DNA of 64,000 bases from Trueperaceae bacterium (GTDB lineage: Bacteria > Deinococcota > Deinococci > Deinococcales > Trueperaceae), in contig OZ243927.1 of assembly GCA_965213925.1 (NCBI GenBank), forward strand, positions 3,232,001 through 3,296,000, read 5' to 3'. The notes beneath the pieces are model-generated. The model worked only from the letters and a program-made list of their open reading frames with translations. It had not been told where the DNA came from and made no database searches. The position numbers and the translations under genes are program-made. The number at the start of each line of letters is the position of its first letter. Position 1 is the first letter of the stretch. This document shows, in pieces, positions 3,849 to 58,937 of this stretch.

Positions 3849-4192
3849 CTGATTCTAAAGGAGCACGGGTATAGAGCACCTATGCCGGTCATACAGGTAA
3901 CCTAGATAGGGGAAGGATCGGCACGCCGTCTGACCGTTTCGCAATCGGATGAGACCATTGTTGGTTCGTCCATTAAAAAGCGCTCACGGTAGGGAGGGCG
4001 GCGACGCCAAACTTACGCGGCGTGCGGTGGCGTCTTCTTCTGCCCCAAACGTAAGGGTGCTTGTGGTCATTCCAGTAGGCAGTGGCTCTTCGAATGGGCT
4101 CAACCATCTCGGTCCAGACCTCGAAGCGCCTGCCTTTGAGAGCTAAAGAGCGTAACGTCTTCCACCAGGGCTCGGTGAGGTTGAGATACCCC

Positions 4193-4256
4193 TAGGTGAT
4201 CGCCGCTAGGCGAATCCGGTCCTGTGCCCTGCGAAGCGGGTATTGTCGGTAACCTA
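4193..4256 (-). mobile_element. Micro-element E2 (64 bp insertion in transposase)
   Basis: AGGTTACCGACAAT...GGACC...GCGATCACCT splits the PKYA|GYLNL motif and shifts the frame. Confidence 0.75.
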
Positions 4257-4725
4257 GCGTACTTGGGCTGGAAGACGAACTCCCACCTGGGGTGAGCCAG
4301 ACTAAAAAGGAGCACGTCGTAAGAGCTGTGCATGTAGAGATTGTCGATGATGGCGTAGATGTGCTTGACCTCGGGCGGGACCCACTGCTCGACCTTTCCC
4401 AGAAACTCGGTATAGTGCCCGCCGATGCGGCGCGGGACCATCTCAGTGAATACTGCGCCTGAGGCGGGTTCTAATGCGCCGAAGACGAAACCACCTTTCG
4501 GGCGATGTGTATAGTCAAGCGCGACTTTCGCGCGTCCGGCGGGGGGTCCACGAATTTTGGTCAGCTCCTTACCTTCATATGTTCTTGAGGCGAGCGGTCC
4601 CATCTCGTCTATGCAGAGGACGACGTTGTTCTCTGGTGGGTCGGTGTAGAGCTGTAGGGTGGCACCCTTTTTTCAGCGAACTCGGGGTCCACCTTTTGTC
4701 CATACCACCCTCCTTGTTGTCGCCA

Positions 4726-4791
4726 AAGGTTACCGCCAACGGCGGCTAGCGGGAGCGGGACCACGCGACTTCGCTTTACGCGATCACCTGT
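4726..4791 (+). mobile_element. Micro-element E1 (66 bp in-frame insertion in transposase)
   Basis: AGGTTACCGCCAAC...GGACC...GCGATCACCT adds 22 foreign codons between EGLR and WRQQ. Confidence 0.75.
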
Positions 4792-5329
4792 CCTGAGCCC
4801 CTCGTTCCTGAAGATTTCGCTCATGCGACTGCGCCCCATCATGATGCCTTCCTCTTCGCTGAGATACGCTACCAGCCTATCTAAGGTCCAAGAGCCGAAA
4901 GGTAGTCCTAGCTCATCAGGTTTCGTTAAAGCCGTTTGAATAACAGTGCCGACATGCTCGCTTTTGTAGATGTGAGGTCGCCCGTGACGCGGGCTTTCTT
5001 CTAAACCAGGAATACCCAGCTTCGTGAAGCGGTTCACCCACTTGCGCACCGTCTGGTGGTGTAGCTCGAGCTTCTCGGCAACCTCGTGCACTGACAGCCC
5101 TAAGTTCGACTGCAAGACAATCCGCGCCCGACGCACTTTGCTCACACCCATCGTCCTCGAACGTTCCCACCTTTTAAGTTCTTGATACTCTTCTTCGGTT
5201 AGCCGACGAACACGGGCATACGGGCGCACGGCTCACCTCCACTAGAATTGAGAACTCTAGCTTAGTCCTGAGTCGAATTAACTGGATGAGCCAATAACTG
5301 TTTGCGTTGAGCGGTGCCCTAAGGCGCGC

Positions 5330-7295: not shown

Positions 7296-7685
7296 GTAGA
7301 GAGTCGAAAGCAATGAGTCGTGAGATAAGAGGTTTTTACTTTTAACTCGTTGCTCGTTGCTACCTTATACGGAATTGCATAACTTACTTAGCTTTACGGA
7401 GGCGTTTTAACTTACCGTCACGAGAGACCGCACCACATACTGCACGCTTTCCGTGTAAAAATCTTCATACTCTGTAAGCTGATGCTAGTAAATGGACGAG
7501 AAATTTGTTACAATAATGCACGTGGTTGTGCTTTTTATCCCTTCCTCGTCAAAGCAAAACGCACACCTAACCATCCCAGAGACAATCTATCCAGCAGTTC
7601 TTGACTCAACTTTCAACACGCTGCGTCACTGACACCTCAGCGAGCACCGTGCTGACTAAACCGTGTGAATTAAAGGAGTATACCC

Positions 7686-21052: not shown

Positions 21053-21184
21053 TGTCACCCTGAGCCGAAGGCGTAAGGGTCTCGTTTCGCAATCTCCGAC
21101 AGTGGAGAAGGCAAATGCAGAAATTCTTTCATCAGGCGAAGCCAATCCTGTAAAGGGCTCCACTTCGTTCCGTTCAGAATGACA
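21053..21184 (+). repeat. TGTCA...TGACA palindromic intergenic repeat, copy 1
   Basis: TGTCACCCTGAGCCGAAGGCG...TTCAGAATGACA; three more copies in the window. Confidence 0.85.
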
Positions 21185-21196
21185 CAGCGGTCATAC

Positions 21197-23591: not shown

Positions 23592-23666
<75 letters not shown>

Positions 23667-23771
23667 CTACTTGAGAACCTTCTGGAAAACAGGTTACACC
23701 CTATTTCTAAGGTGACTCGCTCCGCTCGCTTCGGACGGGCAGAGCCCGAGCCGAAAAGCGGACCTGTTTTT

Positions 23772-23845
<74 letters not shown>

Positions 23846-24039
23846 AAGAGAGGTATCATCTATCAGAAAAACAATACCTGTTTCCTGCCAAGTGGGGTAT
23901 CATCCGTCCTCGGAATCGCCCCGTTTCGTAGAGAGGTATCATCTATTAAAAAACGCAATCAGTTTAGATTGACTGTCTTTTTGATACCTCTTGCTCTCGA
24001 GCCCCCACTATCTCTAACGAAGAACTCGAGCCTTACTCC

Positions 24040-24124
24040 TGGTGGGCCGGGATGGATTTGAACCATCGTAGGCGTAGCCAACGGATTTACAGTCCGTCCC
24101 CTTTAACCACTCGGGCACCGACCC
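24040..24124 (-). tRNA. tRNA-Tyr(GTA)
   Basis: GGGTCGGTGCCCGAGTGGTTAAAGG, loop CTGTAAA, long variable arm, CCA. Confidence 0.95.
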
Positions 24125-24191
24125 GCGCACCAGATGCCACTTAAAAAACCTCAGAGCGCTATCAGTAAGTAGAAACGAATCTCCGAGATTT

Positions 24192-24267
24192 TGGAGCCAC
24201 CCATCGGAATCGAACCGACAACCTTTCGATTACAAATCGAGTGCTCTGCCAGTTGAGCTAGGGTGGC
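24192..24267 (-). tRNA. tRNA-Thr(TGT)
   Basis: GCCACCCTAGCTCAACTGGCAGAGC, loop TTTGTAA, GGTTCGATTCC, CCA. Confidence 0.95.
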
Positions 24268-34497: not shown

Positions 34498-34514
34498 CCT
34501 CACTCCAGACTAAG

Positions 34515-34538
34515 AACAAGGGGTTGCAACCCCTTGTT
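34515..34538. repeat. REP-like 24 bp perfect palindrome
   Basis: AACAAGGGGTTGCAACCCCTTGTT; identical copy at 50213-50236, variants at 57628 and 29571. Confidence 0.85.
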
Positions 34539-36379: not shown

Positions 36380-36507
36380 TGTCACCCTGAACGAATGTGA
36401 AGGGTCTCGTTTAGCTACGCTAAAACTTCGTAACTTGCGCTTTTCTGTTAGAGGAGTCAGCAAGGTCAGAGATTCTTCACTCCGCTAGGGCTCCGTTCAG
36501 AATGACA
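36380..36507 (+). repeat. TGTCA...TGACA palindromic repeat, copy 2
   Basis: Highly similar to 54199-54327. Confidence 0.85.
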
Positions 36508-36561
36508 TATCCGTTTATAGGCAGACACCGATACCCCGCTGACAACGCTGTTCGCTCTCGC

Positions 36562-39797: not shown

Positions 39798-39913
39798 TCG
39801 GTCTCCAATTTAATAAAGAAGCAATGAGTTGAAAGCAATCCAGTCAAGCTGGTGGCTTTAGCTTCCGCAGGAACGAACGGTGAGCAATGAGTCTAAAGGT
39901 TTTCACTTTCAAC

Positions 39914-40348
39914 TCACTGCTCGTTGCTCATTGCTCCTTCTAACAACTCAAAGTCCTCAAAGTCGAACCCCGGCACGACGACGCACGACACCAGCGCGTA
40001 GCCCTCGGCATCTCCCAGCGGCTCCGCCTCCTGCACGTAACCTCCTGGCACGACGACCTGCGGCCGTTCTAAACCGAGCGTTACGACCTCTTGCGCGCCG
40101 TCCGGTGAGGTCAGCGTCAGGTTGATGGGGTCGCCCCGGTGAAAGAGCCACAGCTCGTCCGAGCGGACGCGGTGGGGGCGGCTCCGTTCTCCTGCGGGGA
40201 GCAAGAAGAGGATGGCGGTGCCGGCGGCACGTGTACTCGGATAGCCCTCTGGCTCGACTTCGTGCGGTGAGCGCCAGGTTTCGCGGTAGTAGCCGCCTTC
40301 GGGGTGGGGTTTGAGGTCTAGCGCTTCGATGAGGTCTTGGGCGCTCAC
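39914..40348 (-). CDS. Cupin domain protein (DUF985/Cupin_5)
   Basis: LKPHPEGGYYRET, HRVRSDELWLFH, CVVVPGFDFEDF. Confidence 0.9.
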   Translation of the reverse strand: MSAQDLIEALDLKPHPEGGYYRETWRSPHEVEPEGYPSTRAAGTAILFLLPAGERSRPHRVRSDELWLFHRGDPINLTLTSPDGAQEVVTLGLERPQVVVPGGYVQEAEPLGDAEGYALVSCVVVPGFDFEDFELLEGAMSNEQ

Positions 40349-40375: not shown

Positions 40376-41662
40376 TCAGTTGAACCAGAGCGCGAAATTG
40401 AGGAAGTTGCCGCCAAAAAGTCCTTGCAAGCGCCGCCAGGTATCGGCGCTACTGAGTGGGCCCTCTTCGAGGTAGGGCGTCGCCGCGCTCCCTTGAAACC
40501 AGAGCAGGGCGTCAAAGGTTCGCGGCTCCATGAACACGCGGCGCACGTTGACGCCGCGCCCATCTTGCACGCGCGGATGCGGAATCAGTAGGTCACCCGC
40601 AAGGACGGCGTCCGCCTCGTCCAAAAAGGTTAGCCAAGCCTCTATCTGCACTTCAGTGAGGCGCACACCTATCACACTACTCTGAGTGGCGTTCGGTATC
40701 CACTCGTGTTCGTCGTCGGTTTCGGCGCGTACCGCGTCCCACGAGCGTCGGCTCTCTAAGAGGACGGTCTCAAAACGTTCCAATGCCCTTTCCAAGCGCT
40801 CAGGTTCAGTTGGCTCGAGGTTCAGCAGATGGATAAAGGCGATGAGGTCAGCGATGAGCGTGACGTCGAACATGCCCTCGGGCTCACCCGTGCGACTCAA
40901 AAACTCATGCGGCGTCTGCACCCGTTCGTAGGTCAGATGCGCCGTGCGTTCGAACAGCTCACGGCTGTCGTGAGCTAGATAGATGTCTGTCAGGGCGCTC
41001 AGAAGTTCGGCGTAACCTCGGAACCAGTGAACATCACCACGGTCAAATGCGGTGAGGAGGTCCCCTTCTCCGGGCAGAACCTGGTTGGGCTGACCAAAAC
41101 GGGCAAAAAGCTGTTGAAGACTTTCATCCTCACGGGCGTCGCCGTCGCCATTAAAGTCCAGCCGGATGCGCCCGACAGGTAGCTCGAGCTTGACCTCACC
41201 GTCCTTAACTTCACCGTCCTTAACTTCACCGTCCTTAACTTCACTGTCTTGAACCTCAGCGTCACCGAGAAAATCCTCGAGCGCCGCGAAGGTTGCACTC
41301 GCTTCGCTCAAGTCTGCTAGAAAGGTTTCTAAAATAGCGCGTAAGTTCTCATATGCGATTTCACGCGCGTCACCATCCGCCGCCGAGGGAAACTGAAAGG
41401 GTAAAAAGGTGACGGCCCGGTCATCGGTGCGTAAGCCGTAGCGAGCGAAGGACTGAGACGCGCCCTCGAACGCGCCAAGAAACTGGACGATGCCCAAGCT
41501 AAACTGCGCTTCGGCGTCTTCCGGCTGAGAGCCTAGTCTCTCCAGAAGCGCAGTTTCAGCCTCGAGCAGACGCCCCGTCTCCAGGTAGGGCACAACGAGC
41601 GGCTGAGCAGCTCCAAAACCCGCCAGCCAGAACCAACACAGTATCAGCATAGAAGTGCGCAA
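40376..41662 (-). CDS. Hypothetical secreted protein with EVKDG tandem repeat
   Basis: Signal peptide, TPR-like start, LDFNGDG motif, C-terminal ..ALWFN. Confidence 0.7.
   Translation of the reverse strand: MRTSMLILCWFWLAGFGAAQPLVVPYLETGRLLEAETALLERLGSQPEDAEAQFSLGIVQFLGAFEGASQSFARYGLRTDDRAVTFLPFQFPSAADGDAREIAYENLRAILETFLADLSEASATFAALEDFLGDAEVQDSEVKDGEVKDGEVKDGEVKLELPVGRIRLDFNGDGDAREDESLQQLFARFGQPNQVLPGEGDLLTAFDRGDVHWFRGYAELLSALTDIYLAHDSRELFERTAHLTYERVQTPHEFLSRTGEPEGMFDVTLIADLIAFIHLLNLEPTEPERLERALERFETVLLESRRSWDAVRAETDDEHEWIPNATQSSVIGVRLTEVQIEAWLTFLDEADAVLAGDLLIPHPRVQDGRGVNVRRVFMEPRTFDALLWFQGSAATPYLEEGPLSSADTWRRLQGLFGGNFLNFALWFN
41196..41255. repeat. In-frame 15 bp tandem repeat
   Basis: TCACCGTCCTTAACT x3 plus one degenerate unit. 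Confidence 0.9.
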
Positions 41663-46942: not shown

Positions 46943-49168
46943 ATGTCAGAGTTATCTAAAGAAGCGAAAACCCAGATTGATCCAGACGTAAACACATCTG
47001 TTGAGGTCGCGCAGGCCGCACAAAAGGAGCGCGCGGCGGGCGCGACGCCGCCCAAAGCCACCGCGCCTAACGATGTGCCCCCTGACGTCCCGTTGGATAA
47101 CCCCTCGCTCTACTTCAACCGCGAACTGAGTGAAATCGACTTTCACTGGCGCGTGTTCTACCAGGCGAAGGACGAGCGCTTACCTCTCCTGGAGCGCGTG
47201 CGCTTTTTGTCGATCACCGCGAGCAACATGGACGAGTTTTTTCAGAAGCGTGTAGGCGGTTTGAAGCGGCAAGAGGTCGCGGGCGTACGTAAGCTCTCCC
47301 CGGACGGGCGCACGCCCGCCGAGCAGCTGGAGCTTATCCGCCCAGCCGCTAGGGTGATGTACGAGGAGATGGCGGCGCTGTGGGAGGCGCTGAAAGCTGA
47401 GCTAATCGAGCAAGCGGGGTTTGAAGTAACCTCCTATAGCGCGCTTTCAGACGAGGACAAGGAAAAAGCAGGAGCCGACTTTCAGAGCAGCGTCTACCCC
47501 ATCCTCACGCCGCTCGCCGTGGACCCCGGACGCCCCTTCCCCTTCATCTCCAACTTGAGCCTGTCTTTGGCGGTGAGGCTGCGCCATCCTGAGCGAGACA
47601 CCCATAGCTTTAACAACACGCATTTCGCCCGCATCAAGGTGCCGCTAAGCCGAGGGCGGTGGTACGAGGTCGGGGCGGACCGCGTGATTCCGTTGGAGCA
47701 CCTTATCGCGCATCACGTTCAAGACCTCTTCGCCGGGATGGACGTGTTGGAGGTTCACGCCTTTCGGGTCACGCGCAACGCCGACTTGCGCCGCGACGAG
47801 GAGGAGGCGGACGACCTCTTGGCGATGATCTCCGAGGAGTTGCGGGAGCGGCGCTTTGCGCCCGTGGTGAGGCTCGAGGTCGAAACCACCATGCCCGAGC
47901 CCTTGCGGACGTATCTGCTGGAGAAGTTGGAACTAGACGAGTCGGACCTCTATCCCGCGCCGCTCCTCTCCCTCGCCGACCTCTCCGAATTCGCCGACTT
48001 GCCGCGCGAAGGCCTGCAGTATCCGAGCTGGAAGCCCGTGACGCCCCCGCGTCTAGCGGAGGACGGCGAACGGGAGACGGACGACATCTTCGCTACCCTG
48101 AGGCGCGGCGATGTACTCGTCCATCACCCTTACGAGCGCTTTCGCACGTCGGTCTTGCGCCTCGTCGAAGAGGCGGCCCAAGACGAGCGCGTCGTCGCGG
48201 TTAAACAGACCCTGTACCGCACCTCGGACGACTCGCCCACCGTCGCGGCGCTCGTGCGGGCGGCGGAGAGGGGCAAACAAGTCGCCGTACTGGTCGAGGT
48301 CAAAGCGCGCTTCGACGAGGCGAACAACATCGAGTGGGGGCAGATGTTGGAGAACTCGGGCGTTCACGTAGCGTACGGGCTCGTCGGGCTCAAAACGCAC
48401 GCCAAAGCGACGCTCGTCATCCGCGAAGAGGACGAGGGTGTGCGGACGTACGTGCATATCGGCACGGGCAACTACCACATCAAGACGGCTCGCCTCTACA
48501 CCGACTTAGGGCTGCTCAGCGCTGACCCCACGCTCGGCGCGGACGTGACGCGCCTCTTTCACTACCTCACAGGCTACGCGCCCGAGCAGCGCTACGACGC
48601 CCTGCTGGTCGCGCCGCGCGACATGCGCAAGAGGTTTTTGAGGCTTATCGAAGGCGAAATCGAGCAGCACAAGGCGGACGGCAGCGGACGCATCATCGCA
48701 AAGATGAACGGTCTGGACGATACCGAGATCATCAGAGCCCTCTACCGCGCTTCGCAAGCGGGCGTGCAAATCGACCTCATCGTGCGCGGGCTCTGCCGCT
48801 TGCGTCCAGGGCTGCCCGGTATCAGTGAAACCATCCGGGTCATGAGCATTCTCGGGCGTTTTTTAGAGCATGACCGCGTGTACTATTTTCATAACGGCGG
48901 TGCGCCGCACCTCTATCTGGGCAGCGCGGACTGGCGGCGGCGCAACCTCTCGGACCGCGTCGAAGCGGTTGCACCCGTAGAGGACGCGGCGCTGCAGCGG
49001 CGGCTCATCGAAACTTTAGAGGCAGCTTTGGAGGACAACCGTTTGGCTTGGGACCTGCGCGCGGACGGACAGTACGCGCAGCGCAACCCTGCGGCAGGCG
49101 AAGAGGTCAGGAACTACCACGACACGCTCATAATGAGGGCTTTGGACGATGCGCAGGTCAAGGAGTGA
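46943..49168 (+). CDS. ppk1: Polyphosphate kinase 1
   Basis: YFNRELS, DEFFQKRV, VHHPY, KQTLYRT, KTHAK, GRFLEH. Confidence 0.97.
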   Translation: MSELSKEAKTQIDPDVNTSVEVAQAAQKERAAGATPPKATAPNDVPPDVPLDNPSLYFNRELSEIDFHWRVFYQAKDERLPLLERVRFLSITASNMDEFFQKRVGGLKRQEVAGVRKLSPDGRTPAEQLELIRPAARVMYEEMAALWEALKAELIEQAGFEVTSYSALSDEDKEKAGADFQSSVYPILTPLAVDPGRPFPFISNLSLSLAVRLRHPERDTHSFNNTHFARIKVPLSRGRWYEVGADRVIPLEHLIAHHVQDLFAGMDVLEVHAFRVTRNADLRRDEEEADDLLAMISEELRERRFAPVVRLEVETTMPEPLRTYLLEKLELDESDLYPAPLLSLADLSEFADLPREGLQYPSWKPVTPPRLAEDGERETDDIFATLRRGDVLVHHPYERFRTSVLRLVEEAAQDERVVAVKQTLYRTSDDSPTVAALVRAAERGKQVAVLVEVKARFDEANNIEWGQMLENSGVHVAYGLVGLKTHAKATLVIREEDEGVRTYVHIGTGNYHIKTARLYTDLGLLSADPTLGADVTRLFHYLTGYAPEQRYDALLVAPRDMRKRFLRLIEGEIEQHKADGSGRIIAKMNGLDDTEIIRALYRASQAGVQIDLIVRGLCRLRPGLPGISETIRVMSILGRFLEHDRVYYFHNGGAPHLYLGSADWRRRNLSDRVEAVAPVEDAALQRRLIETLEAALEDNRLAWDLRADGQYAQRNPAAGEEVRNYHDTLIMRALDDAQVKE

Positions 49169-49194
49169 GGGAGGCTATAGATAAAGGCTTTTCG

Positions 49195-49384
49195 GTGGAC
49201 GTTTCAAATCAAAGCAGACCTCTTTGATGAAGTCATGTTCATAGAGGATTACGCTGCTTGTCCCCTATGCCCTCTTCAAGTCCGCCAGAGAAGACGCCAT
49301 CTTGCAGCCGCAAAGAGGCTGCACAAAGGCAATCTCTCTAGCGAACCGCTGACGCCCCCCGGCGGATGTGGGGTTGACCCACAC
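49195..49384 (-). ncRNA. Putative structured ncRNA, copy A (family not recognised)
   Basis: TTGCTG-N17-TACACT promoter; homologous to 51460-51654 with compensatory stem changes; G-U pairs favour the minus strand. 3' end approximate. Confidence 0.65.
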
Positions 49385-49437
49385 GCCTAGTGTACGCTAC
49401 AAACCCCTTCTCAGCAAACGTAACGCGTAGGGAACGC

Positions 49438-49776
49438 ATGGAGCAGCATACTTTTCCTATGAGAACCTATACCTTGGAGGAGATCGAGAGCGAACTCCTC
49501 TTCGACATGTTCATCGCCCAAGAGACCATCTCCGAGCGGTTTGGCCGCGACGCCCAGAGGGACGGGTGGCGCTACACCGTCTACTCGACCAAGCAGCCGG
49601 GCGAACTCGCGGTTCACGCGCGGCGCGGCGGGCGCACCCGCTTCCGCGTCCTCAAAGCGCCCTTTCTCTCCGAGTACTTAGGCGAGGCGCAAGGCACGCC
49701 GCTAACGGGACAGAAGGCGCTCGAGGTGGTGACGAAAATCGAGGCGCGCTTGGGCAGCACTTTTCCTTGGGTATAA
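49438..49776 (+). CDS. Hypothetical protein
   Basis: 112 aa ORF with host-like codon use; no recognisable motif. Confidence 0.6.
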   Translation: MEQHTFPMRTYTLEEIESELLFDMFIAQETISERFGRDAQRDGWRYTVYSTKQPGELAVHARRGGRTRFRVLKAPFLSEYLGEAQGTPLTGQKALEVVTKIEARLGSTFPWV

Positions 49777-49900
49777 ATAGCAGTTCTACTTGTCGTTGCT
49801 TGGACGAAGTCATGCGAAGCAACGCTTCTCCGCAGATTTCACGGCTTTGCCGTAACGGAACTTCATCCCTGAAAGTGCGTGCTAGACGTTAATCTTTCCA

Positions 49901-50161
49901 GTGAGAGTGTAGCTGACCAGACGACCTGTTCCCGGAGGGAAACTTCGTAAGCCCGGCGTCAGCGGGTGTACCTGCTAAAAAAGCAGAGCAACCCTCCGCT
50001 CTGGACATGCCCCACGCCCTCCGTCCACCGGGGAGGTCGGTCTAAAGAGGTGAGTGCCGAATCGCAGATTGCTGCTCCGCCTTTCCTAAGTTAGTCTGAA
50101 ACAGCTCAGCGTTCTGTCAATTGGTTGACCGCAGCGGAGACACACGAATCGGTTGAGTCAC
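49901..50161 (+). ncRNA. Putative structured ncRNA C
   Basis: TAATCT -10 box; two long branched stems (AGACGACC..GGTCGGTCT; GTGA..CCGA..CTCCGC/GCGGAG..TCGG..TCAC) joined by AAAGAG. Confidence 0.5.
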
Positions 50162-50212
50162 GTAGAGAAGAGAGAAGGGTAGTGGCTTTCTCTGGGATGC
50201 TCACTGAATATG

Positions 50213-50236
50213 AACAAGGGGTTGCAACCCCTTGTT
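50213..50236. repeat. REP-like 24 bp palindrome
   Basis: Identical to 34515-34538. Confidence 0.85.
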
Positions 50237-50399
50237 TGCAGAAGTCGGATTCCGTTCACGAGGCGCGTGACCTTGGCTCACTACCAAGAGAAGGAACGCG
50301 CTCACACGCCTTCTCACTATCTTCTTTGACCTGAGCGACGTCTCGTGCAACTCGCAGCGTCGCACCTTCCGAATACAGCCGTTCTGATAGCATCACCTC

Positions 50400-50750
50400 A
50401 TGATACTCGGACTACTCACGCTCTTAGGCTATCAACTCATCGGTGAAGTGATGGTGCGGCTGCTGAACTTGCCCGTGCCGGGCCCGGTCCTCGGGATGCT
50501 CCTCTTGTTCGCGACGCTGCTGCTGCGCGGCGGCGCGTTTGCGGGGCTTGGAGAGGTCTCGAGCGGTCTCTTAGCGCACCTCGCGCTGCTCTTCGTGCCT
50601 GCAGGCGTGGGCGTGGTGCGCTACTTGCCGCTTCTGCGGAGCGAAGGCCTCGCGCTGAGCGCAGTCCTTATCATCAGCACGCTGCTTACACTCGCGGTGA
50701 CGGGCGGGATTTTCTATCTCATGCTCAGGTTGGGGTGGGCGCGTGATTGA
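50400..50750 (+). CDS. CidA/LrgA family holin-like protein
   Basis: LPVPGPVLGMLLL, LLFVPAGVGV. Confidence 0.92.
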   Translation: MILGLLTLLGYQLIGEVMVRLLNLPVPGPVLGMLLLFATLLLRGGAFAGLGEVSSGLLAHLALLFVPAGVGVVRYLPLLRSEGLALSAVLIISTLLTLAVTGGIFYLMLRLGWARD

Positions 50751-51456
50751 GGACATCTGGGTCTATCTCGCGCAGACGCCCCTCTTGTGGCTCACCGTGA
50801 CGCTGCTCGTCTACAGCGGGGCGCAGTGGCTCTTCACGAAGAGCGGGTCGCTGCCACTGGTCAATCCGGTGCTCTTGTCGATCACAGCGCTCGTCGCGAT
50901 GCTGCTCGTTACAGGAACGCCCTACGACACCTACTTCGAGGGGGCGCAGTTCGTCCACTTCCTTTTGGGACCGGCGACCGTGGCACTCGCTCTTCCGCTC
51001 TACAACCAGATTGGGAAGGTTCGCTCGAGGCTCCTGCCCCTAAGCGTCGCCCTCATCGCGGGCTCAGCGACGGGCATCCTCGCGCCTACGCTGCTCGCGC
51101 GGGCATTCTCTTTAGGCGAGCGCACCGTCCTCTCGCTCGCGCCGAAAAGCGTCACGACGCCCATCGCGATGGGCGTCGCTGAGAAGATCGGCGGCGCGCC
51201 TCCACTCACGGCTGTGCTCGTCATCCTGACAGGCATCGTCGGGGCGAGCATCGGGGTCGAGGTGCTGCGGCTGCTGCGGCTGGAAGGTGGCGCGGTGCAG
51301 GGCTTCGCGATCGGCACGGCGTCGCACGGCATCGGCACGGCGCGCGCGCTTCAAGTGAGCGAAGAGGCGGGCGCATTTTCGGGGTTAGCGATGGGGCTTA
51401 ACGGCGCGTTGACCGCGCTGCTCGTTCCCCTTCTTATACGGTTGTTGGGGTTGTAG
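50743..51456 (+). CDS. lrgB: LrgB/CidB family protein
   Basis: LLGPATVALALPLY, SLAPKSVTTPIA, HGIGTARA. Confidence 0.93.
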   Translation: MIEDIWVYLAQTPLLWLTVTLLVYSGAQWLFTKSGSLPLVNPVLLSITALVAMLLVTGTPYDTYFEGAQFVHFLLGPATVALALPLYNQIGKVRSRLLPLSVALIAGSATGILAPTLLARAFSLGERTVLSLAPKSVTTPIAMGVAEKIGGAPPLTAVLVILTGIVGASIGVEVLRLLRLEGGAVQGFAIGTASHGIGTARALQVSEEAGAFSGLAMGLNGALTALLVPLLIRLLGL

Positions 51457-51459
51457 ACT

Positions 51460-51654
51460 GGGTGTCTGAGCGAAACCTCCGGTTTCTCTTTACGGAACGC
51501 CCACACCAATGCCCATACCATAGAACCTTCCCGCTACCTCTCTGAACCGCCAGAGGGACGCTTTCGTGCAGCCGTCTAGTGAGGCTACACGGAAGCAGTC
51601 TCTCTAGCAGGCTACTCACGCCCCCGGCGGAGGTGTAAGGTTAGACCTTACACC
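51460..51654 (-). ncRNA. Putative structured ncRNA, copy B
   Basis: TATACT -10 box; homologous to copy A. 3' end approximate. Confidence 0.65.
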
Positions 51655-51896
51655 TGCGAGTATACGCCAAACGCCGCGAGCATGATGGTCTTATCTTTGG
51701 AGCGACTCTGCATAGAGTTAGCAGATGTTTTCTACCCGAAAGAACGTGACGCCGCTCGGTCCCTTCGGCGTTTCATCCAGGGGCGTAGACACCCTCGAGC
51801 CCATACCTAGCGACCTTTTCATTGCCCCTAACAGCGACGAACCAGCGTCCCAATAGAGTCAGATTAAACACACCTTTCGTACGCTATAGTGGGTCC

Positions 51897-52883
51897 GTGT
51901 TTGACTACCTTTCAAAACTCACCGGGCGACTTCTCAGCCCCCTTTTGTGCGCCCTTGCGCTCTGCCCCCTGGCCGCCGCGCAAACCTACACAGTAGGTGC
52001 CAACGCCTCCTCAGCGGGCTTCGAGCCGGATGTGCGTATAGAAGGGATTAGAGCTGGAGGGCTGCGCTTTGGCGTGCGCGTCGCGGGGGACTCTGAAGCG
52101 GGACGCTTTGAAGGAGGCGCAAGCACCCGCTTCAGCACCTCACTCGGTCCTTTAGGCAACGTCGCAGTGACGGGCCGCGCCAACGCGGATACAGCGGGCG
52201 CGTTCGCCGCCTCGGTGCGCGGCAGCGGTGTGCTCGGACCTGTGGGCGCGCGGATACGGCTGGACGCTTTCAATGTTAACCCGGGTCGCTTCGCACCCGA
52301 AACCCTCTTTGAGGGCGAGCGACCCTTTCTGCTCGGCGCACCTAGTCAAGAAGCGTTCGCCGCCCAACTCGGCGTCGGCTTGACCTACCGCCTCAGCCGC
52401 ACGACGATATTCACCTTAGACCCCGACCTCCTCTATTCGTGGGAGGATGACGAGAGCGGGCTCGGCGTAAGGGGTACGGGCACCGTCGAGCTGCGCCGTT
52501 TAAGAGGTCGGGATAATGGAATCGTATTGGCGGAAGGATACTTGGAGCCAGGAGCCGACGCGGGCTACGGCGCGGCAGGCTTCACCTACGCGCTCAATAG
52601 GCGCAGTTTACCGACGATGAGAGGAACGCTGCTCGTCGGCGCAGGCAGTGAGGGACTCTCTCCGGGCGCACGCTTCTTCATGCAGAAGCGGGACAGGTTA
52701 GATTACAGCCTCACTCTCGCTGCCGAGCCCTACCGCACGGACGTTCCTAAAGTGCGCGGCGAGGCGAGCTTAGCGGGCGCGTTAGGATCAGGGACATTAC
52801 ACACCACCTTGCTCGCCGCGCCGACAAAAGATTTCGATGTACCCCTTCTTACGCTGAGGAGTGCGTATCAGTTTAGCTTTTGA
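51897..52883 (+). CDS. Hypothetical outer-membrane beta-barrel protein
   Basis: TATAGT-N6-GTG start, signal peptide (..LAAAQ), C-terminal YQFSF. Confidence 0.65.
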   Translation: MFDYLSKLTGRLLSPLLCALALCPLAAAQTYTVGANASSAGFEPDVRIEGIRAGGLRFGVRVAGDSEAGRFEGGASTRFSTSLGPLGNVAVTGRANADTAGAFAASVRGSGVLGPVGARIRLDAFNVNPGRFAPETLFEGERPFLLGAPSQEAFAAQLGVGLTYRLSRTTIFTLDPDLLYSWEDDESGLGVRGTGTVELRRLRGRDNGIVLAEGYLEPGADAGYGAAGFTYALNRRSLPTMRGTLLVGAGSEGLSPGARFFMQKRDRLDYSLTLAAEPYRTDVPKVRGEASLAGALGSGTLHTTLLAAPTKDFDVPLLTLRSAYQFSF

Positions 52884-53426
52884 GGGCGGGAGTTGAATGT
52901 CAGAATTTAGCACCGCTACATCGACTTCTGAATTCTGGCGAAGCGTGGGGGCTCTTTAGTTTGACAACTTTGGCTTCTAAACCGCCCATGAGAACGTACG
53001 ACCGCAAAGCGTCTCTAGCGAGACGCTTTGCATGTGAAACACGTCTCAGCTCGGCTTCTTCCAGTTACGGCTTCCTACTCAGGGCTTACGCATGTAGATT
53101 CGTGACATCCTATTCGCATTCGATATGTAGCTTTTCAAGGGACAGAATTCGGCTTTATACCCTCTTCGAGCGAACTCTGTTTTCATTTCGAAAGGTTCAC
53201 AGCGACTTCTTCCAAAGAATTGGCGTACATACGTACGCCCTACTTCCTACTTGCGTAGGTGCGACACGTTCGGCGCAGCGTGTTAGACTGAAGCGTGTTT
53301 TCTCAGACCCCTCGAGCCTCTCTGCCGCTACAACCCGCCCCCGACACGCTGGCGGGCGTTTTTTTGGCTCGAGCGGGGCGCACGTGGTGGTAGTGTAGTG
53401 AGGGGCGCGTCTTACCAGGAGGACCC

Positions 53427-54125
53427 ATGCTCGACAAACTCAGCCAAGTACAACTGCGCGACCTAGACCTCGACACCTTGCAAGAGGAGAAGGGGCGCAC
53501 CCCCGAAGACCTCAGCGCCGCGAGGGAGCGCAAAGAGGCGCTAGAAACGCGCCTGGCGCAGACCGAAGCGCGCTTCAATGAGGTGCGCCAAGAGGTGAAC
53601 CGCAACGAGCTGGAGATTAAAACCTTGAACGAGCGCCGCGAGGGTGCCGCGAACGCCGCCATCGCCGCAGGTCCGACCCGCGAAGCGGCGCAGTATCAAA
53701 ACCAAGAGTTGCAGTTCGCGACCCGCGTGCAGGAGTTAGAGGACGACACCTTGCCGCTCATGGAGCGCATGGAGGGGTTAGAGCGAGAGGTCGCCGAGCT
53801 GAAAGTCGCGCTCGCCGACCTCGGACCTCAGCTCAGCGAACTCGCACAAGCCGAAGAGCTTAGGGTCGCCGAGGTCGAGGAGAAGATCAGCGCCATGACG
53901 AACGAGCGCAACGCCGCAGCCAACGGCATCGACGCCTCGCTCCTCAAGCAGTACGAACAGGTGCGCCGCTCGAAGCGCGGCGTCGGCGTGGTGCCCATTG
54001 TGGATAACCAGCGCTGCGGCGGCTGCAGTATGCGCCTGCCTATCCACGTGATCCAGAAAGCCAAAACGGGCAAGAAGATCACCCGCTGCCCGAGCTGCGG
54101 GCGGATTCTGTGGGCGAAGGATTAA
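53427..54125 (+). CDS. Coiled-coil / C4 zinc-ribbon protein (DUF164-like)
   Basis: Long coiled coil, CGGC...CPSCGRIL. Confidence 0.88.
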   Translation: MLDKLSQVQLRDLDLDTLQEEKGRTPEDLSAARERKEALETRLAQTEARFNEVRQEVNRNELEIKTLNERREGAANAAIAAGPTREAAQYQNQELQFATRVQELEDDTLPLMERMEGLEREVAELKVALADLGPQLSELAQAEELRVAEVEEKISAMTNERNAAANGIDASLLKQYEQVRRSKRGVGVVPIVDNQRCGGCSMRLPIHVIQKAKTGKKITRCPSCGRILWAKD

Positions 54126-54198
54126 GAGCAGCAATGAGTTGAAAGGCTTTGGTTTTCACTCATTACACCGCAAACTAACTATTGATACTTCTTACTGA

Positions 54199-54327
54199 TG
54201 TCACCCTGAGCCGAAGGCGTGAGGGTCTCGTTTAGCTACGCTAAAACTTTGTGACTCGCAATCTCTGCAAGAGGAGTCAGCAAGGTCAGAGATTCTTACG
54301 CTCCACTGCGTTCCGCTCAGAATGACA
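54199..54327 (+). repeat. TGTCA...TGACA palindromic repeat, copy 3
   Basis: TGTCACCCTGAGCCGAAGGCG...GCTCAGAATGACA. Confidence 0.85.
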
Positions 54328-54359
54328 TCACTCTTTAATTAGCAGTGTACTGACGAACT

Positions 54360-57465: not shown

Positions 57466-57888
57466 AGTTGCTCCTCCTTAGAGCTGCCCCGCCCCGATAC
57501 CTATTTTGACTGACGCTTTGATTATGACCTAAATATGTAACGAATGTAAACCGCCCGCTCGAGAAGAGGTCGCGCGAAACGTCAGTGGAGTGGTGGGATA
57601 GGAAGTGCAGAAGAGAGAATGTCAATGCAAGGGGTTTCAACCCCTTGTTCATCACGTAGATATAGTAGAGAGATAGCAACAGGGAGCACACGGCAGCGTT
57701 CGACTCAGAACCACCACCCACTCCTTTTTAGAATTCTGTCTTCTCGGGGTCGATCAGCTTGTCCAGACCTCCCTGAAGGTTACGGAGCTTGAACATGACA
57801 CGCTCTGTTCTACCCCCCACAGTTTGCCACCACAAGACTTACGCTATACTGATTGGGCACAAACGTATAGAAATGGAGAGATGATCAA

Positions 57889-58812: not shown

Positions 58813-58937
58813 TGTCACCCCGAGCCCAGTCGAGTGGTCTCGCCTTGCATTCTCTCACAGGGAAGAAGGCGGTCAGAGATTCTTTCTCTCCACAGCCTGC
58901 CCTGAGCAAGGTCGAATGGGTTACGCTCAGAATGACA
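58813..58937 (+). repeat. TGTCA...TGACA palindromic repeat, copy 4 (divergent)
   Basis: TGTCACCCCGAGC...GGTCAGAGATTCTT...GCTCAGAATGACA. Confidence 0.75.

Follow-up and report, generated by a model that had tools for sequence, protein, structure and literature searches.

A candidate pair of paralogous small RNAs, or a structured repeat, beside ppk1 and lrgB in a Trueperaceae bacterium

Two related elements on the minus strand

The window analyzed here is a 64-kb stretch (64,000 nucleotides, nt) of the ~4.6-Mb genome of a Trueperaceae bacterium (GenBank assembly GCA_965213925.1, contig OZ243927.1, positions 3,232,001 to 3,296,000). It is chromosomal, with a G+C content of 58.6%, and we assign it to a Deinococcota-type host because its 1527-amino-acid RNA polymerase β′ aligns end to end with Thermus proteins (2149 bits). 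Two intergenic sequences in it, here called copies A and B, had been proposed from the letters alone to belong to an unrecognized family of structured RNAs (hereafter the original prediction). The locus reads ppk1, copy A, a gene for a 105-amino-acid protein, a 620-nt gap without genes, lrgA and lrgB, copy B and a gene at 51897-52883; A and B lie on the minus strand and every other item on the plus strand. Each copy sits about 80-115 nt from the stop codon of a plus-strand gene, by hand count, with the next plus-strand gene beyond it. The parts of the two copies, in window coordinates, are the following.

49389-49417, minus strand: copy A, promoter-like region, TTGCTG (49417→49412), a 17-nt spacer and TACACT (49394→49389), read by eye
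49367-49383, minus strand: copy A, 5′ hairpin, UGUGGG / loop UCAAC / CCCACA, from minimum free energy (MFE) folds
49282-49365, minus strand: copy A, conserved core of 84 nt, from the alignment, a covariance model (100.5 bits) and folds
49364→49353, minus strand: copy A, mini-hairpin CGCC-GGGG-GGCG, within the core
49342→49284, minus strand: copy A, long imperfect hairpin from GCUAGAGAG (49342) to CUCUGGC (49284), within the core, with hairpin b at its tip
49323→49303, minus strand: copy A, hairpin b, tip of the long hairpin
49240-49275, minus strand: copy A, AGAGG motif (49275→49271) and 3′ hairpin CAUAGGGGA / UCCUCUAUG (49269→49240), from MFE folds, partly alignable to B
49207-49234, minus strand: copy A, terminator-like hairpin GACUUC..GAGGUC (49234→49217), then UGCUUUGAUU, from the terminator scan
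51659-51675, minus strand: copy B, upstream block GGCGTTTGGCG and -10-like TATACT (51664→51659), no -35-like hexamer, by eye and from the alignment
51631-51655, minus strand: copy B, 5′ hairpin of 11 base pairs, AGGUGUAAGGU / loop CUA / ACCUUACACCU, from MFE folds and as an inverted repeat
51547-51630, minus strand: copy B, conserved core of 84 nt, from the alignment, the covariance model (101.3 bits) and folds
51629→51619, minus strand: copy B, mini-hairpin CGCC-GGG-GGCG, within the core
51608→51549, minus strand: copy B, long imperfect hairpin, within the core, with hairpin b at its tip
51591→51565, minus strand: copy B, hairpin b, tip of the long hairpin
51462-51541, minus strand: copy B, AGAGG motif (51541→51537) and diverged 3′ region, from folds
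51489→51469: hairpin GAAACC-GGA-GGUUUC in the 3′ region of copy B, U-rich tail on the plus strand only, from an inverted repeat and a fold

The two copies are homologous. Over ~137 nt of the minus strand (A 49407→49271, B 51675→51537) they align locally with a score of 72, whereas 200 shuffles gave a mean of 18.8 with a standard deviation of 2.4 and a maximum of 31. Their 84-nt cores (A 49365→49282, B 51630→51547) share 87% mean column identity and differ by three insertions or deletions (indels) of 1, 2 and 1 nt. In both copies the homology begins just 5′ of a TAYACT box, with ~12 nt upstream of the box also conserved, and the flanks on the plus side score 19 against 18.4 ± 2.1 in shuffles, that is, at chance. 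The copies share one orientation and lie 2.27 kb apart. Run over the window with its filters off, a covariance model made from both cores returned 24 matches at E ≤ 10: A and B (scores as listed above), then the reverse strands of B (21.3 bits) and A (13.6 bits), and 20 others with E ≥ 1.3. The 64 kb therefore hold exactly two copies, the number and strand that had been claimed, and neither a motif search nor a repeat finder turned up a further one in the window. The AGAGG motif follows the core in both copies, again as claimed; past it, a weak similarity of the form UAG(C)GGGA ... UCUAUG runs over ~35 nt in a permissive alignment. A separate 17-nt segment at 51759-51775, ~100 nt upstream of B, is 82% complementary to 51543-51559 (GTCCCTCTGGCGGTTCA, in the 3′ strand of the B core), and may be a chance match or a partial extra copy of the core's 5′ strand.

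Every reading frame is stopped in at least one of the two copies, and the indels are of 1, 2 and 1 nt; A and B are therefore non-coding. As a protein query, a 51-amino-acid plus-strand frame over A gave no candidate. A 61-amino-acid minus-strand frame over B gave two matches (proteins of 629 and 277 amino acids, in 11 and 5 stretches), which we read as repetitive or low-complexity and did not use.

Neither copy belongs to a known RNA family in Rfam 15. At gathering score, its 4227 models, which cover riboswitches, 6S, signal recognition particle, RNase P, transfer-messenger (tmRNA), Y and IS605-associated RNAs as far as these are in the release, found only four transfer RNAs (tRNAs; 23595-24267) in the whole window. 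Relaxing the threshold to E ≤ 10 over 48900-52000 added three weak matches (13-19 bits against gathering scores of 35-90), none of them credible; only one of the three overlaps either copy, and it matches the plus strand of B to a model of an animal microRNA. ARAGORN found no tRNA or tmRNA gene in 48900-52000. For Y RNAs there was neither an Rfam match nor a TROVE domain among the 57 open reading frames (ORFs) scanned in the window, and a full-text search of the literature found no description of the motif. The earlier statement that these sequences match no known family thus stands.

Folding, strand and ends

In both copies the TAYACT box, which the original prediction had read as a -10 box (TACACT/TATACT), is followed after 4-6 nt by the 5′ hairpin. 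The apex of this hairpin is GGG/CCC in A and AAGGU/ACCUU in B, complementary in each copy despite the different sequence, so the compensatory changes claimed for it are real. The full-length MFE fold has the same order in A and B: the 5′ hairpin, the mini-hairpin CGCC-GGG(G)-GGCG, and the long hairpin. It reaches -81.4 kcal/mol in A (z score -4.7, none of 200 shuffles as good) and -83.0 kcal/mol in B (z score -2.9, one of 200 as good). The long hairpin pairs GCUAGAGAGAYUGCY with RGCGUC..CUCUGGC; its lower stem, GCUAGAG / CUCUGGC, is identical in sequence in the two copies, and its apical loop opens with a CCUC-like sequence of anti-Shine-Dalgarno type. Taken as a whole, the core amounts to a long imperfect palindrome, with 30-nt arms that are 70% complementary and 7 nt apart. 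Hairpin b, at the tip, is present in every model and was correctly predicted: 8/9 or 9/9 of its modeled pairs form in A and B, with a switch from C-G to U-G at column 45.

By contrast, the more elaborate architecture proposed for the core was not supported. A three-way junction can be drawn (24 pairs, with 97.9% of 47 cells paired), but it reaches no more than -23.8 kcal/mol in A and -26.8 kcal/mol in B, against -28.8 and -35.6 kcal/mol for the long hairpin that competes with it, taken by itself, and RNAalifold on the core alignment also prefers the long hairpin. The long-hairpin fold places the 1-nt indel of the G-run in a loop, and therefore no compensation is needed; a hybrid model, in which CCGCC/GGCGG closes the long hairpin, likewise pairs 97.9% of cells. 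Hairpin a can be drawn within the junction, but with three pairs only it is weaker than stated. Its loop had been proposed to kiss that of hairpin b. The complementarity between the two loops is worth -4.6 kcal/mol in A and -4.5 kcal/mol in B, values that 10.9% and 26.9% of 5000 random loops equal or better, which is the level of chance. The covariation claimed for the core comes down to one doubly changed pair in two sequences, a level that 237 and 247 of 500 shuffles also reach. This pair involves column 38, which covaries both with column 19 in the three-way junction and with column 70 in the long hairpin; we regard this as a curiosity, not as evidence.

Folding is strand-biased. Over 121 nt, the MFE of A is -60.5 kcal/mol on the minus strand against -48.8 kcal/mol on the plus strand, 11.7 better on the minus, and that of B is -64.4 against -62.4 kcal/mol, 2.0 better on the minus. 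In the RNAalifold consensus, all of the one-sided changes (5/5) are switches between G-C and G-U, which become A.C mismatches when read on the plus strand, and pair 26-82, U-G in both copies, would likewise be an A.C mismatch there. In line with these observations, the earlier argument that G-U pairs favor the minus strand is sustained. Both strands of both copies nonetheless fold far below shuffles, with z scores from -3.7 to -5.9 (-4.1 and -5.6 on the plus strand).

A scan of the region for terminators listed seven terminator-like sites against 2.9 ± 1.7 in shuffles, among them the site at 49234→49217 with its U-rich tail at the end of A, a minus-strand hairpin that has no minus-strand protein gene to serve. 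Near B, the U-rich tail (UCUUUAC) of the hairpin at 51469-51489 is found on the plus strand only, and the hairpin therefore fits lrgB and not B; it looks like the lrgB terminator. The variable 3′ domain of the original prediction is weaker than stated: the sequence past AGAGG has diverged, yet it is partly alignable and otherwise ordinary spacer, and a terminator-like end is seen in A only.

The genes that frame the copies are as follows.

46943-49168, plus strand: ppk1, convergent with copy A
49459-49776, plus strand: gene for the 105-amino-acid protein, adjoining copy A
50743-51456, plus strand: lrgB, convergent with copy B
51897-52883, plus strand: gene for a secreted-type protein (signal-peptide-like start, terminal phenylalanine) of no known family, adjoining copy B

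The 105-amino-acid protein is real and narrowly distributed, in 15 clusters at 56-100% identity with the start MRTY or MKRTY. It has no Pfam or NCBIfam family and no fold match in the PDB at E ≤ 0.001 (its AlphaFold model has a mean predicted local distance difference test score, pLDDT, of 65), and a tblastn search of plasmids gave no match. Nothing found on this protein ties it to RNA. Read by eye, -10-like boxes lie 6-7 nt before the start codons of two plus-strand genes, CATACT..ATG at 49459 (49446-49461) and TATAGT..GTG at 51897 (51885-51899), which suggests that the 105-amino-acid and secreted-protein genes give leaderless-type mRNAs. Since these genes have -10-like boxes of their own, A and B need not belong to their mRNAs.

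Several further features lie nearby or elsewhere in the window. The 620-nt gap between the 105-amino-acid gene and lrgA (49780-50400) may hold another small transcript: it contains a strong minus-strand terminator (50003→49984, then CUUUUUU), and at E ≤ 10 its only Rfam match is a weak plus-strand one resembling a glutamine riboswitch (17.2 bits against a gathering score of 35). Beyond the secreted-protein gene, the ~540 nt of 52884-53427 carry a 172-codon frame of odd composition and no family and are probably non-coding; they include a perfect 12-base-pair palindrome, GCAAAGCGTCTC-TAGC-GAGACGCTTTGC (about 53007-53034), and a plus-strand terminator (53346-53359, then seven T), and Rfam at E ≤ 1 gave nothing credible there. 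At least three dispersed families of intergenic repeats are present. One has four copies of ~110-140 nt (21095-21194, 36444-36517, 54264-54337 and 58851-58937), with conserved blocks that include TCAGAGATTCTT and TCAGAATGACA, and an insert in two copies; no Rfam model reaches its gathering score there, and the family may be either a further RNA or a mobile repeat. The second is a perfect hairpin, GAACAAGGGGTTGCAACCCCTTGTT, in three intergenic copies (34508-34538, 50206-50236 and 57619-57649), of which the one at 50206 is a weak minus-strand terminator-like site. The third is short, ~30-48 nt at 69-79% identity (7314-7361, 39881-39928 and 54130-54158). The window also has a tyrosine-integrase gene (339-1322) and an IS630-like transposase whose sequence is divided between two minus-strand ORFs (4100-5229), with HTH_32/HTH_23 in 4609-5229 and no domain match in 4100-4603; no convincing terminal inverted repeats of this element were found. 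Finally, four tandem 15-nt units (CTTAACTTCACCGTC-like, 41189-41263) lie within a 428-codon minus-strand ORF (40376-41662) without a Pfam family.

Weighing the readings

The single most likely reading, which we hold tentatively and with less than even confidence, is that A and B are two paralogous, lineage-restricted genes for minus-strand small RNAs (sRNAs) of ~180-195 nt that lie outside Rfam. On this reading, transcription would start a few bases after the TAYACT box, and the RNA would open with a 5′-terminal hairpin of the type that shields bacterial sRNAs from 5′-end-dependent decay. The G-rich mini-hairpin would come second and the long imperfect hairpin of ~60 nt, with its identical lower stem and CCUC-type apical loop, third. 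AGAGG and the diverged 3′ part would come last, the terminator-like hairpin closing A. The most plausible role would be that of a trans-acting regulatory RNA, in which the conserved hairpin module may serve as a scaffold for stability or protein binding and contact with targets may be made either by the C/U-rich loop and pyrimidine tracts or by the diverged 3′ part. Of the original prediction, what survives is the pair of homologous, non-coding, hairpin-rich elements, for which stand-alone RNAs are still the likeliest reading; the observation is largely real, but the junction with its kissing loops, the covariation and the functional guesses are not supported. Those guesses were a guide, decoy or antitoxin RNA. 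The two loci share no partner gene, and no TnpB, IscB, Ro or toxin-like neighbor is encoded among the 57 ORFs.

A number of observations pull the other way. What the analysis shows for A and B is their homology, lack of coding, strong and strand-biased folding, absence from Rfam and placement among co-directional plus-strand genes; transcription, the RNA ends and function are what we infer. A strict scan for the sigma-70 consensus returned no site and listed the promoter of neither copy, B lacks a -35 hexamer by eye, and the terminator scan of the region found no minus-strand terminator-like site for B. In the alignment, one position of B (A31.C77) pairs on the plus strand only. Covariation carries no statistical power because there are two sequences only. 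At the ~75-87% identity of A and B, runs of 8-10 identical bases would be expected without selection, by a rough estimate, and the conserved blocks alone are therefore no proof of constraint. The proteins encoded next to A and B are unrelated to each other, with no partner gene common to both loci. The richness of the genome in other intergenic repeat families raises the prior for a plain DNA repeat. Relatives, too, are lacking: a pattern of three exact blocks, which diverged relatives would escape, found no homologue in 185,579 species-representative genomes, and distant blastn searches of plasmids with A and B, and of phages with A, gave no match. The genome scan returned a single locus, in a Fermentithermobacillaceae metagenome-assembled genome, and the window's own copies were not among its matches. 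That locus lies inside a 254-codon ORF and has neither the G-run block nor the 5′ arm of hairpin b; we therefore read it as a chance match, of which we estimate that ~2-3 would be expected.

The main rival, which we regard as doubtful but as deserving serious weight, is that A and B are a structured intergenic DNA repeat, REP/ERIC-like or similar to the small noncoding repeats (SNRs) of Deinococcus, without a transcript of its own. Such a repeat would multiply at the DNA level, by spread or duplication, and would keep its hairpins because it is palindromic or is recognized as a hairpin; if it were transcribed at all, this would happen passively, in the untranslated regions (UTRs) of its neighbors. 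The presence of at least three other dispersed families in the window, the palindromic form of the core, the strong folding of both strands and the failure of the exact-pattern scan to find relatives in other species, as expected of repeats with fast turnover, are all consistent with it. Lineage-specific repeats are documented in Deinococcus: a published account (PMC1978522) describes 295 small noncoding repeats of at least nine types in D. radiodurans, mosaic in structure and absent from D. geothermalis. Against it, there are only two copies in 64 kb, in one orientation. The terminal inverted repeats and target-site duplications of a miniature inverted-repeat transposable element (MITE), the kind of DNA repeat that the original prediction had itself named as a rival, are not common to A and B; the repeats found there are internal hairpins or specific to one locus. 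Nor do the copies resemble the other repeat families, the IS630-like element or any other part of the window: the best local scores of A and B against the rest of it are 24-26, within the range of shuffles (maximum 31), and no modules are shared. The G-U pattern, together with the 11.7 kcal/mol by which the strands of A differ, speaks for selection acting on the RNA of one strand.

Improbable, in our judgment, is a plus-strand element of the 3′ UTR or intercistronic region after ppk1 and lrgB, acting as mRNA-stabilizing hairpins or a processing site. The position of the copies, 80-115 nt past a plus-strand stop codon and before the next plus-strand gene, would suit it, as would the significant folding of the plus strand and the one position of B that pairs only there. 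However, the plus-strand fold of A is the weaker one by the full 11.7 kcal/mol, and all wobble-type changes turn into A.C mismatches on that strand. In addition, lrgB has its own terminator-like hairpin, which precedes copy B, and ppk1 and lrgAB are functionally unrelated.

There is also a slim chance that A and B represent a new family of stand-alone RNAs, restricted to Deinococcota, in which the core acts as a switch between two states. In it, the pyrimidine strand GCGUCYYYUCUGGCGG might pair with the 5′ G-run, closing the three-way junction and exposing GCUAGAGAGA, or with GCUAGAGAGAYUGC, forming the long hairpin and exposing the G-run. The conserved module would then be the sensor, of a ligand, a protein or temperature, with the output given in trans by the diverged 3′ part. 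The double covariation of column 38 (C in A, U in B) with columns 19 (G/A) and 70 (G/A) is a hint in this direction.

An orphan guide-RNA scaffold of a mobile element (TnpB omega/reRNA type), left by decayed insertions or used in trans, seems very unlikely. Deinococcota are known hosts of IS200/IS605-TnpB elements, and the outline of the copies is as expected: a conserved module of ~137 nt ends fairly sharply at its 3′ side, near AGAGG, and the sequence past it is largely unrelated. Yet none of the 57 ORFs contains a TnpB, IscB, IS200/IS605, Ro/TROVE or toxin-like domain, Rfam gives no match even at E ≤ 10, the homology goes on weakly past AGAGG, and a promoter-like box stands at the start of the element, with no remains of a nuclease gene. 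Least probable of all is a cis-regulatory leader (riboswitch, thermosensor or attenuator) built on the pyrimidine strand and its two mutually exclusive partners, CCGCCGGGGG(G)CG and the GCUAGAG-containing strand (97.9% of cells paired either way), and on the Shine-Dalgarno-like AGAGG and anti-Shine-Dalgarno-like CCUCU motifs, since the minus strand downstream of both copies is the 3′ end of a convergent plus-strand gene (ppk1 or lrgB), as the original prediction had noted and the gene map bears out, no minus-strand ORF common to A and B follows (only a 12-codon frame after A, by eye, and an unrelated antisense 56-amino-acid frame after B), and Rfam gives no riboswitch match.

A and B are best treated as an unclassified pair of candidate sRNAs, or as a repeat. 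The regulatory RNAs of Deinococcota are poorly catalogued. If expressed, the copies would add to them a sibling pair of structured small RNAs, in which the joining of a conserved hairpin scaffold to a diverged 3′ part could readily be studied. Should they prove to be repeats, they would be one more of this genome's several intergenic families, of interest mainly for genome evolution. With two sequences and an architecture backed by thermodynamics alone, the finding bears on no long-standing question yet.

Comparison with known systems

Among known systems, MITEs resemble A and B in being small, non-coding, palindromic and repeated; unlike them, A and B share no terminal inverted repeats or target duplications and do not resemble the IS630-like element at its ends. 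The omega/reRNAs of TnpB likewise consist of a conserved structured scaffold followed by variable 3′ sequence, but A and B have no adjoining nuclease or transposase gene and no Rfam match, and carry a promoter-like box of their own.

Like the Deinococcus SNRs and REP/ERIC elements, A and B are intergenic, non-coding, hairpin-forming and lineage-restricted, in a genome with other repeat families. Compared with the SNRs by description only, they differ in having two copies in one orientation, no modules shared with the rest of the window and strand-biased G-U pairs.

Sibling sRNAs that share a conserved module include OmrA/OmrB, PrrF1/2 and Qrr1-5. A and B have no sequence or Rfam relationship to these, and what is conserved in A and B is mostly base-paired and not a single-stranded seed. 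Rather, the likeness lies in layout: A and B are nearby copies in which a conserved 5′ or central module is joined to a diverged remainder, they are stand-alone and hairpin-rich, and A closes with a terminator-like end.

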